From positions 39,622 to 103,621 of the forward strand of contig CALJTV010000036.1 in NCBI GenBank assembly GCA_937975645.1: DNA of 64,000 nucleotides. Direction: 5' to 3'. This document shows positions 45,319 through 52,950 of this stretch, piece after piece. The stretch is from an uncultured Dehalococcoidia bacterium. Lineage in GTDB: Bacteria > Chloroflexota > Dehalococcoidia > GIF9 > UBA5629. Made by a program: the position numbers and the translations under genes. How positions within the stretch are numbered: the stretch's first letter is position 1; each line of letters opens with the position of its first letter. A model generated the notes under the pieces. That model searched no databases and was not told the DNA's origin. It worked only from the letters and a program-made list of their open reading frames with translations.

Positions 45319-46011
45319 CTATTTCTTATAGAAGCCAGGATTGCTCAGCAGATTGTCCTGCAGACACCAGGTCAGCGAGCAATGCTCGGTGTGCGGGCAG
45401 CCGCTGATGCCCCAGTCACCACCCTTGCCACCACCATAGCAATCTCCGGTGCCAAAGTGGTTCGGGTGGTCATCATTGATGCGCGGATGGGTACCAATGG
45501 TACCCCCTGCCCAGCTCTTGCTGGCAAAAGCCAGGCTCCTACCCCAGCAGCAGCAGCAGGTGGCTAGCTTGCCCTTAAGCACCGGAGTGCTCGGGCACTC
45601 CACCTCTGCCTGACCGGTAGCTGGACAGGCTTCGCTCGAAAGCGACGCCTCGCAAGCCGCCGGGTCTGAACAAGTCGCCAAGGCACCCTGCTCCACATCG
45701 CGGCAAGCGGGACAACCAGCAGTGGCACCACAGTCCATGTCCTTCCCAGTAGGACAGCTTATGCCAAAGAAATCGTTGCACCACCTGCTCGGACCACATA
45801 GTCCGGACAGCCTGGACATAGACTGTATCGGCGTCCTCCCCCAGTTCTTGATATAGAGGTTCCAAGAATCAGGGTTGTCCTGCCACTTCACCTTGTCCCA
45901 GGCGCCCTTAGCCAAGCCTGCATAAGCGTCCTCCGCTGACACCACCGCCGGCATCAACATGACAGACAACGCCAGCAACAAAGCAAACGACGCACCTATA
46001 GCTTTCCTCAA
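45319..46011 (-). CDS. Secreted cysteine-rich protein of unknown function
   Basis: The TTG start follows GAAGGAGGTG. The signal peptide ends ...PAVVSA/ED. I count 18 Cys, including a 'CCCC' run. Confidence 0.6.
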   Translation of the reverse strand: MRKAIGASFALLLALSVMLMPAVVSAEDAYAGLAKGAWDKVKWQDNPDSWNLYIKNWGRTPIQSMSRLSGLCGPSRWCNDFFGISCPTGKDMDCGATAGCPACRDVEQGALATCSDPAACEASLSSEACPATGQAEVECPSTPVLKGKLATCCCCWGRSLAFASKSWAGGTIGTHPRINDDHPNHFGTGDCYGGGKGGDWGISGCPHTEHCSLTWCLQDNLLSNPGFYKK

Positions 46012-46123: not shown

Positions 46124-46202
46124 TACAGCTTGCTGTTGCCAAATACACAGCGGATAGGAGGTGAGAACTTCACGGAAAAATCTAAATAGGAGGGAAGGTG
46201 AT

Positions 46203-46571
46203 TTGAATGCACTGGGAAGACACTTACTGCTGGAGCTCAGAGACTGTAATCCGGAGGTGCTCAATGACCTGAAGTTCCTCAGAGAATGCCTTTATCAAGC
46301 CGCCAAAAACATCGGAGCCACTATAGTAAACGAATGCTTCCATGAGTTTAGCCCCCACGGTATAAGTGGTGTAATCGTTATCTCGGAATCACACCTCTGT
46401 ATACATACCTGGCCAGAGCACAGGTATGCTGCGGTGGACATATTCACCTGCGGGGATGCCGTGGACCCCGAGAGGGCTGTGAAACCACTCGTGGAACAAC
46501 TTGGCTCCAAAAACCCCTCTTTCATCGAAATGAAGAGGGGTATACTGCAAGGCAGCCGGGTTGGAGTGTGA
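46203..46571 (+). CDS. speH: S-adenosylmethionine decarboxylase proenzyme (small bacterial/archaeal type)
   Basis: LNALGRHLLLELRDC...VISESHLCIHTWPE contains the self-cleavage ES site. The TTG start at 46203 follows GGAGGGAAGG. Confidence 0.8.
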   Translation: MNALGRHLLLELRDCNPEVLNDLKFLRECLYQAAKNIGATIVNECFHEFSPHGISGVIVISESHLCIHTWPEHRYAAVDIFTCGDAVDPERAVKPLVEQLGSKNPSFIEMKRGILQGSRVGV

Positions 46572-46577
46572 AGTAGC

Positions 46578-47510
46578 ATGACGGACCCAGACAACCCTGA
46601 TAGAGACAAACGCAACTGGTTATATGACCAAATAAACCCTAACCTTGTCCAGCTTCATAGGATAAGGCGACAGATATACTCAGAGCGGACAGAGTTCCAG
46701 TATCTGGAAATAGTGGAGACTGCCAGCTTCGGGACTTGTCTGGTACTGGACGGCAGAATTCAGTCCAGTGCCAGCGATGAGTTCATCTATCACGAGGCAT
46801 TGGTCCACCCGGTCATGTTGGCACATGATTACCCCCAGACGGTCTTCATCGCTGGTGGAGGTGAAGGTGCCACATTGCGAGAAGTACTCAAACACAAGAC
46901 TGTAAAAAGGGTTGTTATGGTGGATATAGACAGAGGGGTGGTGGATATCTGCCGTCATTATCTGCCCGCTTTCCATCAAGGTTCTTTTGATGATGCCCGC
47001 CTTGAACTCCATTTCACCGACGCCAGAAAATACCTTGAACAAACAGCAGAGAGCTTCGATGTGGCAATAGTAGACCTGGTCGAGCCTTTGAAAGAAGGGC
47101 CGGCATGCCTGCTGTACACACAGGAGTTTTATCAGCTTATCAAAAGCAGACTATCCCCAGGTGGTATCGTTTCAGTCCAGTCCGGCGCTGCTGGCTGGAC
47201 AAACCTCTCCCTGTTTACCGTGATAGTCAACACTCTGAAAAGTGTTTTCCCCAGAGCTCGCCCTTACCATATCTACGTACCTTCATTTGTCGATATGTGG
47301 GGGTTCACTGCAGCCTCAAAAACTATTGACCCCGCTAAGTTGTCTCCCCGAGAAGTCAACCGCAGAATCGCAACAAGAATGGTGACGATACCTAGGGCCT
47401 ATGACGGGCTCTCCCACCTGGCTATGTTTACCCTCCCCAAACACATCCGACGCCGTATAGCATCCACCAGAAGGGTCGCCACGGACAACGCCCCCATCTT
47501 CATCCACTAA
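46578..47510 (+). CDS. speE: Spermidine synthase / polyamine aminopropyltransferase
   Basis: 'VFIAGGGEGATLREVLKH' and 'VDLVEP' are present. Confidence 0.85.
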   Translation: MTDPDNPDRDKRNWLYDQINPNLVQLHRIRRQIYSERTEFQYLEIVETASFGTCLVLDGRIQSSASDEFIYHEALVHPVMLAHDYPQTVFIAGGGEGATLREVLKHKTVKRVVMVDIDRGVVDICRHYLPAFHQGSFDDARLELHFTDARKYLEQTAESFDVAIVDLVEPLKEGPACLLYTQEFYQLIKSRLSPGGIVSVQSGAAGWTNLSLFTVIVNTLKSVFPRARPYHIYVPSFVDMWGFTAASKTIDPAKLSPREVNRRIATRMVTIPRAYDGLSHLAMFTLPKHIRRRIASTRRVATDNAPIFIH

Positions 47511-47557: not shown

Positions 47558-48091
47558 TTAACCTTCTGGAGAGAGCTTTTCCGGACGAAATATCTCCATG
47601 ACCAGGAAAGAGTAGCCCCAGCAGAAGAGACTGCCACAGGGGGTAAAGCCGCACTTCCTGAAGCACTTCTGTGCCCGTATATTCCAGTCGAGCGTCTTTA
47701 GGTACACCCTCCGTAGACCGGTGCTTGCGAAAATATACCTTAACAGGGTGAGGATAGCATCGGTGCCGTAGCCACGGTCCCAGTAAGCCCGGTTGCCGAT
47801 CATTATCCCTACCTCCGCCTCTTGCTTCTCCTCATTGATGCTGAAAAAGCCGCAATTGCCGATATGCTCTCCCTCCAGGGTCTCTATAGCAAACCGTCGC
47901 CCCGAATGGTAATGTTTTAGCTCCCAGGCATAGTCCTCGAGAAACTCTTTGAAAGAGCAGGTGAGGGGCGACGTAGCATCGAGACGGCATAGCTCGGCAT
48001 CGCGCCGCCAAGCATAATCATTAGCCGCATCCCCTATATGCTTAGGGCGCAGCCTCACCTTTTCGCCAACCAGCGATAACTGTTCAATCAA
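47558..48091 (-). CDS. GNAT-family N-acetyltransferase (RimJ/RimL-like)
   Basis: 'GEKVRLRP...' and 'IGNRAYWDRGYGTDA' are present. TTG 48091 overlaps the upstream stop by 8 nt. The track ORF start at 48142 is less likely. Confidence 0.7.
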   Translation of the reverse strand: MIEQLSLVGEKVRLRPKHIGDAANDYAWRRDAELCRLDATSPLTCSFKEFLEDYAWELKHYHSGRRFAIETLEGEHIGNCGFFSINEEKQEAEVGIMIGNRAYWDRGYGTDAILTLLRYIFASTGLRRVYLKTLDWNIRAQKCFRKCGFTPCGSLFCWGYSFLVMEIFRPEKLSPEG

Positions 48092-49022
48092 AGTCGTCCA
48101 GCGATTGTGATAAAGGTTCCTCGTTGAAACGCAGCACCTCAAGGGCTTCTTCCGCCGCCTGGCGGACCCGCTGTTCGCGGTGGTGCAACAGTCTTTTCAG
48201 CGCCCTTTTCGCCTGTTCACCACCGATCTCACCCAGCGCCCTGATAGCCGCTTCCTGGACTTCGCCATCGGTGTCCTCGACCAGTCGCAAAAGCTGTGGC
48301 ACCGCCTCCACGGCACCCAGCTCGGCACAGGCGTTGGCTGCCTCATACCTCACCGCCGGTTCCTCACTCTCAAGTTCATCTAGCAAAAAGTCCAGCCATA
48401 ATGGATCACAGTTCCGTCCCATAGCGTATATAGCGCTCAGCTTGAATTCAGCACCGCCCTGACAGTACGCTTGCCCTATCAACTCCTTTACCCGCGGCTG
48501 GTTGAACGGCGAGATAGCCTCAAGGGCACGCCGCCTCACTTGGACCAGCTCCTGCCCATTATTGATAGCATCAAGCAGGGCTTCATACACTATATCCTTG
48601 TAGTACGCCGAAATTTTGCCGCACTCGGCAAGCATGGCAAAACTGCCCAGTGCTGTAGCTGCGGCTTCCCGCACTCTCGCTGAGCTGTCATGTCTCAAAC
48701 GCTTCACCAGTGGCACAATAAGTTGACAGTTGTCCTCGCCTTCCAAGCCCATTATTGCCTGTAGCCTCACCGCCTCATCATCATCACCCAGACAGGAGAC
48801 AAAAACAGCGGTGAAGTCCATCCCGAGATCTGTCTCGCTGAGATGTACTAGCTTGGAAATGATCTCTTGTTTTCGCACTGCATCCACCCTTGCCCAATTC
48901 AGCTCAAAAAACCTCAGCTCTTCACGTCCCAAGCCCGAAAGACATGCAAGCTCGGAACTGGTCACTGGCTTATCAGAGTTGAGTAGACCGCTTATTCGCT
49001 CTATACGCGCTGCCAGTTGCAT
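48084..49022 (-). CDS. HEAT-repeat (PBS-lyase-type) protein
   Basis: The sequence shows repeated 'D..VR..AA.ALG' units. Confidence 0.7.
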   Translation of the reverse strand: MQLAARIERISGLLNSDKPVTSSELACLSGLGREELRFFELNWARVDAVRKQEIISKLVHLSETDLGMDFTAVFVSCLGDDDEAVRLQAIMGLEGEDNCQLIVPLVKRLRHDSSARVREAAATALGSFAMLAECGKISAYYKDIVYEALLDAINNGQELVQVRRRALEAISPFNQPRVKELIGQAYCQGGAEFKLSAIYAMGRNCDPLWLDFLLDELESEEPAVRYEAANACAELGAVEAVPQLLRLVEDTDGEVQEAAIRALGEIGGEQAKRALKRLLHHREQRVRQAAEEALEVLRFNEEPLSQSLDDFD

Positions 49023-49025
49023 ACC

Positions 49026-49853
49026 TCAGAACTCCTCATCGTCCTCTTCTTCCTCGTCTTCTTCTTCCTCTTCCTCATCTTCTGGCGGCCACACTGGCTT
49101 GGTATAACGGTCGATATATTCACCCATGGCTGCTGCTGCTACCTTCTTCATCTCCTCTTCTGACTCTTCCGCTAGCGTAGCCAGCTCTGAAAGGTCTATG
49201 TCAATGTCAAGTATCCTCACCAGTACCTCGAGCACCGCCAGGGCGGCTTTAGGGTTCGGGATTCGGGTAGTATAGGAAGGGACCTCACCGAGGAGACACA
49301 CCCCTTCGACGCCACACTCCTTGGCTACACCGAGAAACAACCCGTTGAGCCCAGCGATCTGTACGTTGCCACGCAATACCACATCATACCTCTTTAACAT
49401 TTCTATGAGCTTCCGGCTCGTGGCTGCCCCCCAGACTCTAGGCTTCTCGGTATGATGGATCTTTGCCATAGCCGCGGCGGTAGTGTAAACCCTTTTAGCC
49501 TTCAACTTTCTCCCGGCATCAAGCACGCACCGGGCTAGCTCATAGCCCTTGAAATTCGGTTGCTCCTCACCGATGAACAGCAATAAGCCGCGGTCTGTGT
49601 GGGTATTATGCCAGTAGTAGAACTTGCTCTCCGGGAAACGGGGCGCTTCGATCAGGTTGTCCCTCACCATAATACCGATGGGGTCAAAAAACTCAAAAGG
49701 CGCCAGCTCTCCAATCTCCTCAGCACCCAGCTTGTCCTGCAGATACTTGGCTACGATCAGCCCTACATTGCCAATGCCAGGCCAAGCAGCCAGCATATCG
49801 CAGACCTCGGGACGCAGCTCCTTATAAAACTTTACCGGATTTTTTATCCTCAT
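49026..49853 (-). CDS. PAC2 (proteasome assembly chaperone 2-like) family protein with poly-acidic tail
   Basis: 'LAAWPGIGNVGLIVAKYL' is a PAC2-type N-terminus. The C-terminus is PPEDEEEEEEDEEEEDDEEF. Confidence 0.65.
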   Translation of the reverse strand: MRIKNPVKFYKELRPEVCDMLAAWPGIGNVGLIVAKYLQDKLGAEEIGELAPFEFFDPIGIMVRDNLIEAPRFPESKFYYWHNTHTDRGLLLFIGEEQPNFKGYELARCVLDAGRKLKAKRVYTTAAAMAKIHHTEKPRVWGAATSRKLIEMLKRYDVVLRGNVQIAGLNGLFLGVAKECGVEGVCLLGEVPSYTTRIPNPKAALAVLEVLVRILDIDIDLSELATLAEESEEEMKKVAAAAMGEYIDRYTKPVWPPEDEEEEEEDEEEEDDEEF

Positions 49854-49872
49854 GCTACAAACATCGATAGGA

Positions 49873-51201
49873 CTAGCCCTCTTTGGTGGCTACTGGCAGA
49901 CCCCCACAGTAAAGACATGGGGTCAGTAACGCGCCCTCCACCCACCTTCTTTCCTTCCCGATGCCTTCGATTTGATTCAGTACCTGGTACACGTTACCTG
50001 AAACCATCGTGTTCTTCACCCTGCCCACAATTTCCCCATCCTCCACCTTGTAGCCCAGCAGGACATTGCCACTGAAGTCCCCGTTAAGCACATTACCTTG
50101 CTCAGCACCCATCACCAGTTCTACCACCAGCCCCTCTTTGATGTCCCTGACCATGTCCCAGAAATCGCTGTCCCCCTCCCCTATCACCAACGAGCTGGGG
50201 TGAGGTGCAGGCAAGCCCCCCTGGCGGCTGCCATTCCCGGTACTTCTCGAGCCCGACAGGGCTGCAGTATGCAGGTCGTAGAGGAAATGCAATACCACTC
50301 CACGCTCCACCAGCGTTGTCCGTTGTCCAGACACACCCTCATCATCACAGGGATAGCTCCGAGGCTGGAAAGATATGGTGGCATCATCCCACAGGTTGAA
50401 CCTAGCGTCAAACACCTGCTCCCCCAGCCTGTCTTTTAGCGGCGAAGACCCATCATAAACGATTTTACCATTGAACGCTGCCACAAGCGAGGGCAGGAGG
50501 CAACTAGCAACGCCGTAGGCGGTGAAGACCACTGGCATCGTCCTTGTCTTGATGCTAGCGTTCCGCTTCGCCAGCTCAAGTTGTCTTATCACCTCATTAA
50601 CCACCGACTTGAAATCCGTCAGCCGTCGACAGGAACTCTGGCTGTCCCCAACAAACAACATATCTTCGCCCCTAACCAGCATACCATCAATGCTTATCCT
50701 GAAATAGCTCTTTCTATAGCTGGCTTCGCCACCGTTGGAGTTAATTAGATGCACCGAGATAACACGCTTTGCTACCAGAGCATCGCACAGGAGTTCAGGT
50801 GTGTGCGACCTCACGGCGTCAATAAGGCTTTGCCCCAGTCCAGCCATGTCCTCAATAGGTACTCCGTCCACTTCCGGGTCAAACGTCTCCACCTGCACAG
50901 GGTCCACCTTCGCCGGAAAGGAAAAACCCTCCGGTACATCGAAGCGGCATGTCTCCACCGCCATCTGCACCAGGTCTGCTGGTCTGATAAAGCCACTTGC
51001 TTGGGCAAAGCCAGCTTTGCCTCCTTTCACGATCCTGAGCGCGGTCACAGTGCTCTCCCTATCCTCCACCTGTTTGAGCCGGTTGGCATGAAAATACACT
51101 GGCATCGCCATTGACACCATCTGAAACACCTCAGCCTGCTCTGCTACCTCTCTGGCTTTCTCCAGGACCTCTTCCACTAGTGTTTGCCTCCCACCAGACA
51201 T
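49873..51201 (-). CDS. pmbA: PmbA/TldE family protein
   Basis: The sequence is TldD/PmbA-fold without an HExxxH motif. The start is ambiguous: ATG 51201 or GTG 51249. Confidence 0.75.
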   Translation of the reverse strand: MSGGRQTLVEEVLEKAREVAEQAEVFQMVSMAMPVYFHANRLKQVEDRESTVTALRIVKGGKAGFAQASGFIRPADLVQMAVETCRFDVPEGFSFPAKVDPVQVETFDPEVDGVPIEDMAGLGQSLIDAVRSHTPELLCDALVAKRVISVHLINSNGGEASYRKSYFRISIDGMLVRGEDMLFVGDSQSSCRRLTDFKSVVNEVIRQLELAKRNASIKTRTMPVVFTAYGVASCLLPSLVAAFNGKIVYDGSSPLKDRLGEQVFDARFNLWDDATISFQPRSYPCDDEGVSGQRTTLVERGVVLHFLYDLHTAALSGSRSTGNGSRQGGLPAPHPSSLVIGEGDSDFWDMVRDIKEGLVVELVMGAEQGNVLNGDFSGNVLLGYKVEDGEIVGRVKNTMVSGNVYQVLNQIEGIGKERRWVEGALLTPCLYCGGLPVATKEG

Positions 51202-52538
51202 CGCGATACCCTTATATGCGGGCTGCCATTGGAGACCGGCAGCGGCCACTGGTCACCCTTGCCACAACCTCCACCTTGCTCCATCTCGAGGTCATTTCCG
51301 ATGGCTTCGATGTTCATCAGTGTAGTGAACACATTGCCGCTGAGCACTACCGGGCGAAGCAGCTCAGCCAACTTGCCATTGCGTATCGTATACGCCTCAC
51401 CGGCGGAGAAGGTGAACATCTCCAAGCTAGTGGTGCCCCCATACCATTCTCTAGCATAGACGCCCTCCTTAATATCGCTTATCATGTCTTCAAAGGACAC
51501 CCCTCCAGGCTCTATGTATGTGTTGGTCATTCTGACTATGGGCGGGTAAATATAACTTATTGCTCTGGCATTGCCAGTAAGCTGCTCACCCATCTTGGCT
51601 GCCGTCTCTCGGGAATGTAGGCGGCTTACCAGTATACCCTCCCTTATTAGGTAAGTCTTAGTTGCTGGCACACCCTCGTCGTCATACTTATAGCTGCCCC
51701 TCAGCCCTGGTACGGCAGCGCCGTCTACGATGTTCAATTCCTTACTGCCGAACCTCCTCCCCAGCACCATTATCTCCTGCAGCTTCTGGTTCTCATAGAC
51801 ATGGTCGGCTTCAGAAAGGTGTCCAAAGGCTTCATGAACGAACACACCTGCTAGAATAGGATCGAGCACCACAGTGTATTCTCCACCTTTGGCATAGGGC
51901 GCCGAAAGAAGCCTCACTGCCCTCCGGGCTGTCTCCCTGACCTTCTCCTGTAGCCCCTCCACCACCGAAAAATCTCCAGGACTACCCAGGCTCAAGCCCG
52001 CTTGCTGTACCTCCCCATCGCTGGCAGCTACTGCTGCTAGCCGCAGGTTGATATCCAGCTTTGTCTGCTCAATGTAGCTACCTTCAGAATTGGCAAAGAG
52101 GAGCTTCCGCTGGCTGTCCTGATAGTTTATCTGACAGCTCCGCACCTTCGGCGTGCTCATCACAATGTCGTTATATTCATCTAACAACTGTTTCTTGAGC
52201 ACCAGCGGTACCTCTGCCGGACTCTTCTTCACTTCAGGCACCACAACATCGACTATGGGACCGGTAAAGCACAGCTTGCTGGTTTCCCTGCCCAGCAGCC
52301 TCGCTTGGCTGATCACCACTGCTACCTTCTCCCTCAGCCTGTCCAGGTTGTTGAAGCTGGCAAATCCCCAGCCACCATTCACCAGAGCCCTGACATTACC
52401 CCCCACTGCCGATGTCCTGCCCATCTCCTCCAGCCTGCCGCCACGATATACAATCCGCGTCGCCTGGCTCTCCTCAACGCGTACCTCTATATAGTCGGCG
52501 TTATGCCCTTTTAAAGCCTCAAAAATAATGTCACGCAT
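51177..52538 (-). CDS. tldD: TldD family metalloprotease
   Basis: The 'HEAFGH' (HExxxH) motif is present. The start is set at ATG 52538 (MRDIIFEAL...). Confidence 0.8.
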   Translation of the reverse strand: MRDIIFEALKGHNADYIEVRVEESQATRIVYRGGRLEEMGRTSAVGGNVRALVNGGWGFASFNNLDRLREKVAVVISQARLLGRETSKLCFTGPIVDVVVPEVKKSPAEVPLVLKKQLLDEYNDIVMSTPKVRSCQINYQDSQRKLLFANSEGSYIEQTKLDINLRLAAVAASDGEVQQAGLSLGSPGDFSVVEGLQEKVRETARRAVRLLSAPYAKGGEYTVVLDPILAGVFVHEAFGHLSEADHVYENQKLQEIMVLGRRFGSKELNIVDGAAVPGLRGSYKYDDEGVPATKTYLIREGILVSRLHSRETAAKMGEQLTGNARAISYIYPPIVRMTNTYIEPGGVSFEDMISDIKEGVYAREWYGGTTSLEMFTFSAGEAYTIRNGKLAELLRPVVLSGNVFTTLMNIEAIGNDLEMEQGGGCGKGDQWPLPVSNGSPHIRVSRCLVGGKH

Positions 52539-52656
52539 CCTCAGATTCCCAGCACAGTTCTTTATTATAACACAAGATACTTGCCCCAGCCCCCAACGGA
52601 CAGCGCTAGATTGGACATCTGTCATGGTCTGGAGTATACTAAGGGATACAGAAAGC

Positions 52657-52950
52657 ATGCAGTCCAGCCTTATCGGGAAGATAGAGAAAGCCAGGCGCTA
52701 CGCAGAGGAGCCAGACCGTATCAAGTTTCAGGAATTCGCTGCCAAGTTCCAAGGACAGCACGATAGCTACACCTTAAGCTACAAGGGCGGGAAATGGCAC
52801 TGCACCTGCCATTTCTTCTCCCAGTGGAAGCTGTGCAGCCACATCATGGCACTGCAGCAAATTCTGGCGAAAATGCTACCGGAGGAGGCGCTTACCTCCC
52901 CAATTACAACAGCTGCTTCAGTCCCCCAGTCCCCTGATCTAACTGCTTAG
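52657..52950 (+). CDS. SWIM zinc-finger protein
   Basis: 'CTCHFFSQWKLCSH' fits the CxCx(n)CxH pattern. The start is set at ATG 52657. Confidence 0.6.
   Translation: MQSSLIGKIEKARRYAEEPDRIKFQEFAAKFQGQHDSYTLSYKGGKWHCTCHFFSQWKLCSHIMALQQILAKMLPEEALTSPITTAASVPQSPDLTA

Follow-up and report, generated by a model that had tools for sequence, protein, structure and literature searches.

A PAC2 family gene joined to tldD and pmbA in a conserved five-gene block of the Dehalococcoidia

What does a protein of the PAC2 family do in a bacterium in which no proteasome gene was found, and why does its gene stand directly behind those of another protease? The question is raised by a 64,000-nucleotide stretch of contig CALJTV010000036.1 (hereafter the window, meaning the whole of the DNA that was analysed), which belongs to a metagenome-assembled genome (MAG) of an uncultured member of the Dehalococcoidia. 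This genome amounts to 1.52 Mb, is 79% complete and probably comes from a marine metagenome. On the minus strand of the window, from position 52538 down to 47558, Pfam matches and the sequence itself define five genes in the order tldD, pmbA (tldE), PAC2, HEAT and GNAT. The block is the only TldD/TldE protease operon of this genome, extended by three clade-specific genes.

The five-gene block and its conservation

The tldD gene (51177-52538) encodes 453 amino acids and carries the Pfam domains PmbA_TldD_1st, PmbA_TldD_2nd and PmbA_TldD_3rd. It is followed by pmbA/tldE (49873-51201, 442 amino acids), also with PmbA_TldD domains (PmbA_TldD_3rd, 203 bits), by the PAC2 gene (49026-49853, 275 amino acids; PF09754, 147.8 bits against a cutoff of 25.8), by the HEAT gene (48084-49022, 312 amino acids; HEAT_2, 110 bits, together with HEAT and HEAT_PBS) and by the GNAT gene (47558-48091, 177 amino acids counted from the TTG at 48091; Acetyltransf_3, PF13302, 81.8 bits against a cutoff of 25.4, over the full model length), all on the minus strand. 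The first two genes overlap by 25 nucleotides (nt), with the pmbA ATG at 51201 and the tldD stop at 51177-51179. Gaps of 19 nt and 3 nt separate pmbA from PAC2 and PAC2 from HEAT, respectively, and the TTG of the GNAT gene at 48091 overlaps the end of HEAT, including its stop, by 8 nt. A preliminary description of the window, made from its letters alone, had given the same coordinates, gene identities and four junctions, and all of these are borne out by Pfam and by reading of the sequence. The five genes are confirmed as an operon-like unit. A GAGG ribosome-binding site lies immediately 5' of the tldD ATG, and a putative extended -10 promoter element, TGTTATAAT (52564-52572, minus strand), was seen in the sequence about 25 nt upstream of the same ATG; it is absent from the output of a consensus promoter scan because it has no good -35.

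To describe the surroundings in other genomes, the window proteins were searched with tblastn against the DNA around each PAC2 copy. An orthologue of the PAC2 protein is present in all 41 sampled relatives, with 53-88% identity, and pmbA is directly upstream of it in 38 of 40. Among 24 genomes of the same family, 20 have all five genes in order, and the remaining four end at contig edges and are consistent as far as they can be read. A second, independent draw of 80 species-representative loci contained 55 with room on both sides; the exact order tldD-pmbA-PAC2-HEAT-GNAT is found in 42 of these and tldD-pmbA-PAC2 in 52. The best 80 genome loci are without exception from Dehalococcoidia or Chloroflexota MAGs. 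Of the loci in other families of the class, nine keep the block, among them complete single-contig genomes of 1.4-1.9 Mb, and no folC, pyrF, speD or speE was found within 7 kb of any of the nine. It is also present, with different flanks, in other orders of the class, and on a metagenome contig whose PAC2 protein is 50% identical the five genes are flanked by those for an ABC transporter and an aminotransferase.

The spacing is conserved along with the order. From tldD through to GNAT the median intergenic distances are 0, 6.5, 0 and -4 nt (35-46 loci), and the junctions are nearly everywhere overlaps or gaps of a few nt. The preliminary description had raised the question of whether PAC2, HEAT and GNAT genes recur beside tldD and pmbA or whether the arrangement is confined to one genome; the latter is clearly not the case, as the same order and spacing are found class-wide. 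Other PAC2 subfamilies, sampled from a 50%-identity library, stand in unrelated contexts with no TldD, although several of those contigs are too short to read. The literature that we searched contains no paper connecting PAC2 with TldD or PAC2 with Rv2125, and nothing relevant on Dehalococcoides with TldD/PmbA, which agrees with the earlier remark that the block matches no described system. The parts all come from known families; their arrangement is new.

The block consists of two layers, a tldD-pmbA-PAC2 core and a HEAT-GNAT pair. In one family, f4, the core is followed by UDG, RNase J and FtsK genes instead of HEAT-GNAT, and a search with the HEAT protein of the window found no homologue anywhere in five f4 genomes. 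Because this family has the three-gene core only, we regard the HEAT-GNAT layer as accessory. We note that in one f4 genome (G040) the tldD and pmbA genes are 525 nt apart, and the gap holds an inserted gene (L045:8195-8566) that encodes a 23S rRNA intervening-sequence protein (PF05635). Such interruptions of the tldD/pmbA pair are few.

The encoded proteins

TldD carries the sequence HEAFGH at residues 235-240 and GGGCGK at 422, with the distal cysteine at Cys425. In an alignment of 45 orthologues, H235, E236, H240 and C425 are invariant. A motif search found no HExxxH in PmbA, which was also aligned over 45 orthologues; the earlier statement that the motif is on TldD and not on PmbA is therefore correct, and the division is that of TldD/E from Escherichia coli. 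Both proteins match PF01523, PF19290 and PF19289. In PmbA the lower scores are those of the central domain, at 23.2 bits just above the cutoff of 20.9, and of the first, which at 17.6 bits falls below the same value. TldD matches PDB entry 5nj5_A with an E value of 9.3e-40, and PmbA matches TldD/PmbA-family chains in the PDB. Scores against the curated NCBIfam models are well below their cutoffs (TldD, 271.8 bits against Arch_mtprotase_TldD with a cutoff of 635 and 147 against PRK10735 with a cutoff of 513; PmbA, 82.7 against PRK11040 with a cutoff of 438), which indicates that the two proteins are divergent members of the superfamily rather than equivalogs. The genome has one TldD/PmbA pair only, and thus no specialised duplicate. 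Judged by these motifs and matches, tldD and pmbA encode the catalytic and non-catalytic subunits of a metalloprotease of the TldD/E type.

The E. coli TldD/TldE pair (PDB entry 5NJ5; Ghilarov et al., 2017; PMC5810440) likewise consists of adjacent catalytic and non-catalytic paralogues with three PmbA_TldD domains each, and HExxxH and the distal cysteine within GGGCGK are found on its TldD only. Its structure shows a hollow heterodimer, in which TldD carries the metal site and a narrow channel admits unfolded chains only, which are trimmed from the N-terminus (PMC5810440). The system described here differs in that the sequence of its TldD is nearer to the archaeal-type model, although below the cutoff of that model, and in that the operon also contains PAC2, HEAT and GNAT genes, which have not been described for E. 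coli.

The Proteasome family (PF00227) has no match anywhere in the 79%-complete genome and none in any of the 24 genomes of the same family, several of which are 97-99% complete. Single PF00227 matches of about 190 amino acids were found in five other relatives, outside the family. The preliminary description had noted no proteasome genes in the window, and this holds when the PF00227 search is extended to the whole genome and to the family; the same searches support the view that the PAC2 protein occurs without a proteasome.

The PAC2 protein scores 132.9 bits, below the cutoff of 200, against NCBIfam TIGR00162, a hypothetical equivalog model for a proteasome assembly chaperone family. Its closest solved relative is PbaB (PDB entry 3vr0), with E values of 7.5e-21 (phmmer) and 8.5e-32 (profile), and the same entry is the top Foldseek match of the AlphaFold model, with template-modelling (TM) scores of 0.74/0.81 and 29% identity. 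PbaB ranks above PbaA, Rv2125, Rv2714 and human PAC2. The model, with a predicted local distance difference test (pLDDT) value of 86, comprises a PAC2 core and a long C-terminal helix (residues 222-250), and residues 255-275 fall below 50. Residues 244-255 (49089-49124, minus strand; EYIDRYTKPVW) form a clade-specific C-terminal motif, within which T251-x-P253-x-W255 of FTxP[IVL]W is invariant among 45 aligned orthologues. The motif is also kept in seven orthologues encoded away from tldD/pmbA; the host's other PAC2 paralogue lacks it, and so do other PAC2 subfamilies. Residues 256-275 (49029-49088, minus strand) are a poly-Glu/Asp tail that is predicted to be disordered, and in the alignment and in 40 orthologue tails an acidic run follows the motif in every orthologue. 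None of the PAC2 orthologues has an HbYX (hydrophobic-Tyr-X) end, the tyrosine never being penultimate in the 40 ends compared. On the evidence of these aligned C-termini, the HbYX proteasome-docking end is replaced in this PbaB-like protein by the FTxP[IVL]W tip and the poly-acidic tail. The terminal phenylalanine is found in this genus only, which rules it out as a docking signal.

PbaB from Pyrococcus furiosus is a homotetramer and an ATP-independent activator that caps the 20S proteasome, and it acts as a holdase/chaperone by means of flexible C-terminal 'tentacles' (Kumoi et al., 2013; PMC3605417). The window protein resembles it in its long C-terminal helix and in the flexible end that comes after it. 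It differs in lacking HbYX and having FTxP[IVL]W and the acidic tail instead, in the position of its gene after tldD-pmbA, in the failure to find a proteasome in the host genome or family, and at N170 and C186, which are conserved in the bacterial clade and are different in PbaB. The fold is also common to the mycobacterial and actinobacterial homologues Rv2125 (PDB entry 5UN0), Rv2714 (PDB entry 2WAM) and SAV PAC2 (PDB entry 3MNF), with Foldseek E values of 1e-15 to 1e-17, but these are less similar to the window protein than PbaB is. The organisms in which they occur have a 20S proteasome, and we know of no TldD/E linkage for any of the three.

Residues Q98, N170, C186 and E190 are conserved in at least 85% of 124 bacterial PAC2 relatives, as are WPG, QP, GxNG, CLLGE and NP motifs. 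These polar residues could form an oligomer interface or a ligand site. An enzymatic role was also considered and rejected: PbaB does not share N170 and C186, Rv2125 does not share E190 and His133/134 vary, so there is no basis for calling the protein an enzyme.

A Dehalococcoidia genome without a proteasome can have as many as four to six PAC2 matches, a tandem pair among them. The other paralogue of this genome (G000:C21:10172-11068) is located between MiaB-like radical-SAM and DAG-kinase-like genes and has a different end. Groups of bacterial PAC2 proteins have distinct conserved ends: proteins of about 320 amino acids that end in YEDRFLDLF account for 73 of 124 representatives (P0126-P0275), and FTVDYRDLF and HbYX-like YIG/YIS ends also occur. 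Such subfamily-specific ends fit the idea that the C-terminal tip may set partner specificity in the PAC2 family. PAC2 homologues also stand beside SPFH/Band_7 genes in two unrelated lineages (L152:6947-10052; L165:3279-6795, also L166 and L167). In one of these cases the neighbour is an NfeD-Band_7 pair, NfeD belonging to another membrane-associated protease system. These are two observations, and the adjacency may be due to chance.

The HEAT protein is predicted to be an all-helical solenoid over its full length, with 18 helices and a pLDDT of 93.9. Its repeats are of the PBS-lyase/alphaRep type (HEAT_2, 110 bits; HEAT_PBS, 44.8 bits). Scores against NblB (60, cutoff 300), CpcE (31, cutoff 330) and CpcF (28, cutoff 220) suggest a protein which has the repeat type of these families but is not a member of any of them. 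Foldseek returned only generic designed HEAT (alphaRep) and armadillo binders, and the HEAT clusters are Chloroflexota-specific (Atlas). The preliminary description had given weight to the DDFD at the end of the protein. This was misplaced, since DDFD is found in this genus only and is thereby ruled out as a docking signal; the end that is conserved more widely is (C/N)E(D/E)PLS-like.

The best curated match of the GNAT protein is SpeG (NF011709; 35.9 bits, cutoff 218). All of its best PDB matches are SpeG chains, with E values of only about 5e-7 to 1e-6. Against rimI (TIGR01575) it scores 18 bits, with a cutoff of 86.4, and the curated RimJ and RimL models gave no match at E <= 0.01. The earlier label of RimJ/RimL-like acetyltransferase stands at the Pfam level, and the sources of the orthologues label them 'RimJ/RimL family', but it does not stand at the level of the best curated and PDB matches, which are weak and to SpeG. 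The protein is best classed, from these comparisons, as an orphan branch of Acetyltransf_3.

Eukaryotic N-terminal acetyltransferases of the NatA type consist of a GNAT catalytic subunit and a helical-repeat auxiliary subunit. By analogy, the GNAT gene is here translationally coupled to that of an all-helical repeat protein, which may be its scaffold. This putative scaffold differs from that of NatA in being of the HEAT/PBS-lyase rather than the TPR type, with no detectable homology, and the GNAT belongs to Acetyltransf_3.

Flanking genes

On one side the block is separated by about 370 nt from folC, and between them, on the opposite strand, lies a small conserved gene. This small open reading frame (ORF; 52528-52950, plus strand, likely start 52657) has a CxC...CxH (SWIM-like) motif and no Pfam match, and it shares 47 nt with the 3' end of folC. 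In 25 loci of the order it is conserved, with 49-73% identity, and divergent from tldD. A promoter-like site with 10 of 12 matches (52612-52640, plus strand) lies just 5' of its likely start. On the other side speD-speE (46161-47510, plus strand), which encode S-adenosylmethionine decarboxylase and spermidine synthase, are convergent to the GNAT gene and 47 nt from its stop. Upstream of them is a Cys-rich ORF without a Pfam match (45319-46011, minus strand). The neighbourhood of speD-speE and the Cys-rich ORF is conserved within the family of the host only.

What the block might do

The preliminary description had suggested a unit for substrate selection, modification and proteolysis. This is supported in part: the genes form an operon-like block, and their five products may form one machine. 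In our view, the probability is roughly 0.4 that TldD/E has a helper in the PbaB-like protein and that HEAT-GNAT modifies the substrates, perhaps at their N-termini. The PAC2 protein would work with TldD/E as an adaptor or holdase, keeping substrates unfolded and handing them to the cage by means of its tip and tail; alternatively, it might aid the assembly of the TldD-TldE pair. The translationally coupled HEAT and GNAT proteins would form a pair of scaffold and catalytic acetyltransferase acting on the same substrates. As TldD/E threads free N-termini, N-terminal acetylation could gate entry into the cage. A more specific form of this proposal, in which a protein of the PAC2/PbaB type, so far known only as partner to the 20S proteasome, has been re-used without a proteasome as a docking adaptor or activator of TldD/E, a self-compartmentalised protease unrelated to the proteasome, through FTxP[IVL]W and the acidic tail, with HEAT-GNAT gating entry by acetylating substrate N-termini, seems to us somewhat unlikely. 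A complex prediction with TldD, PmbA and residues 215-275 of the PAC2 protein gave a score of 0.00, which refers to the third chain only; it was run without controls and counts neither for nor against.

Several observations weigh against a helper role. In seven loci from other families a PAC2 orthologue with an intact motif is unlinked from tldD/pmbA and adjoins unrelated genes (dnaN, gyrB, acyl-CoA dehydrogenase and Band_7), while TldD/PmbA are still encoded in all five of the genomes with an unlinked PAC2 gene that were checked. In a class sample of 151 genomes, 103 have TldD and 28 have this PAC2 type, so that TldD/E does not need such a PAC2 protein. All 28 of these genomes are TldD-positive, although they are related and not independent. 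TldD/E can thus do without the PAC2 protein, which is an accessory and was found only where TldD/E is present. Furthermore, the unrelated folC gene likewise has its place near tldD in much of the order, which means that synteny alone is no proof of function, and the closest characterised relatives of the GNAT protein, by weak scores, are spermidine rather than protein N-terminal acetyltransferases.

A first alternative is that the five genes share no function and are housekeeping genes packed and co-transcribed in small streamlined genomes, their order being maintained by vertical inheritance and slow rearrangement. The places that folC and, in one family, also speD-speE and the Cys-rich ORF keep beside the block are what this would lead one to expect, as are the seven loci with PAC2 elsewhere and the five f4 genomes in which HEAT-GNAT was not found; the complex score of 0.00 again speaks neither way. 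The flanks themselves argue otherwise, since the block outlasts them and has different neighbours in other orders and on the metagenome contig. Its junctions are overlaps or a few nt, compared with the larger, gene-containing interval to folC. The near-constant place of PAC2 immediately after pmbA and the restriction of this PAC2 type to TldD-positive genomes also oppose it, and we regard an absence of shared function as doubtful.

The linkage evidence is equally compatible with a second alternative, in which the PAC2 protein is an assembly chaperone that holds an unstable TldD or TldE monomer, promotes the correct heterodimer and then leaves, as eukaryotic PAC1-PAC2 does for proteasome alpha rings. 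The acidic tail would then be an intramolecular or solubilising element. The PAC2 family is named after assembly chaperones, and according to a speculation by the authors of the E. coli structure the TldD monomer is unstable and either subunit can homodimerise (PMC5810440), in which case a sorting problem exists. On the other hand, TldD is found without this PAC2 type in E. coli and in 75 of 123 genomes of the class, so widely that assembly would generally need no helper. PbaB, the nearest solved relative, binds the mature proteasome as an activator and not its intermediates (PMC3605417), and the control-free prediction with its score of 0.00 gave no interaction here either. We consider a pure assembly chaperone unlikely.

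A link to polyamines is very unlikely. It would make the GNAT a SpeG-like spermidine/spermine acetyltransferase, with the acidic PAC2 tail binding polyamines and the block serving polyamine homeostasis. The case for it consists of the SpeG matches, which are the best NCBIfam match and all of the best PDB matches of the GNAT protein, and of speD-speE converging on its gene in the family of the host. These matches are far below the SpeG cutoff or at E values of about 1e-6, the speD-speE adjacency is limited to that one family whereas the HEAT-GNAT coupling is class-wide, and translation of the GNAT is coupled to that of a protein-binding solenoid. Finally, TldD/E removes the leader of microcin B17 and serves several pathways for peptides that are made on the ribosome and modified after translation (RiPPs; PMC5810440), but a RiPP maturation cluster, with TldD/E as leader peptidase and the GNAT as a tailoring or self-immunity enzyme, is so improbable that we reject it, as no gene for a precursor peptide, a cyclodehydratase, a radical-SAM protein or a transporter was found in or beside the block, the TldD/E pair is the only one in the genome and the block has, throughout an order of small genomes, the conservation of a core gene set.

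If the link between the PAC2 gene and tldD/pmbA should prove to be positional only, the block would be a caution on inferring function from synteny in streamlined genomes. For the bacterial PAC2 homologues, a conserved operonic tie to another chambered protease, in genomes where no proteasome was found, is a concrete and testable lead, and the clade holds complete genomes with all five genes, so that expression and testing of the proteins are possible. If the more specific proposal, with docking through the tip and tail, is true, PAC2 proteins would be general 'cage-protease adaptors' whose C-terminal tips set the partner, and the protein described here would be the first dedicated regulator for TldD/E. 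TldD/E is nearly ubiquitous, and such a dedicated partner would open a way to its physiological substrates and regulation.

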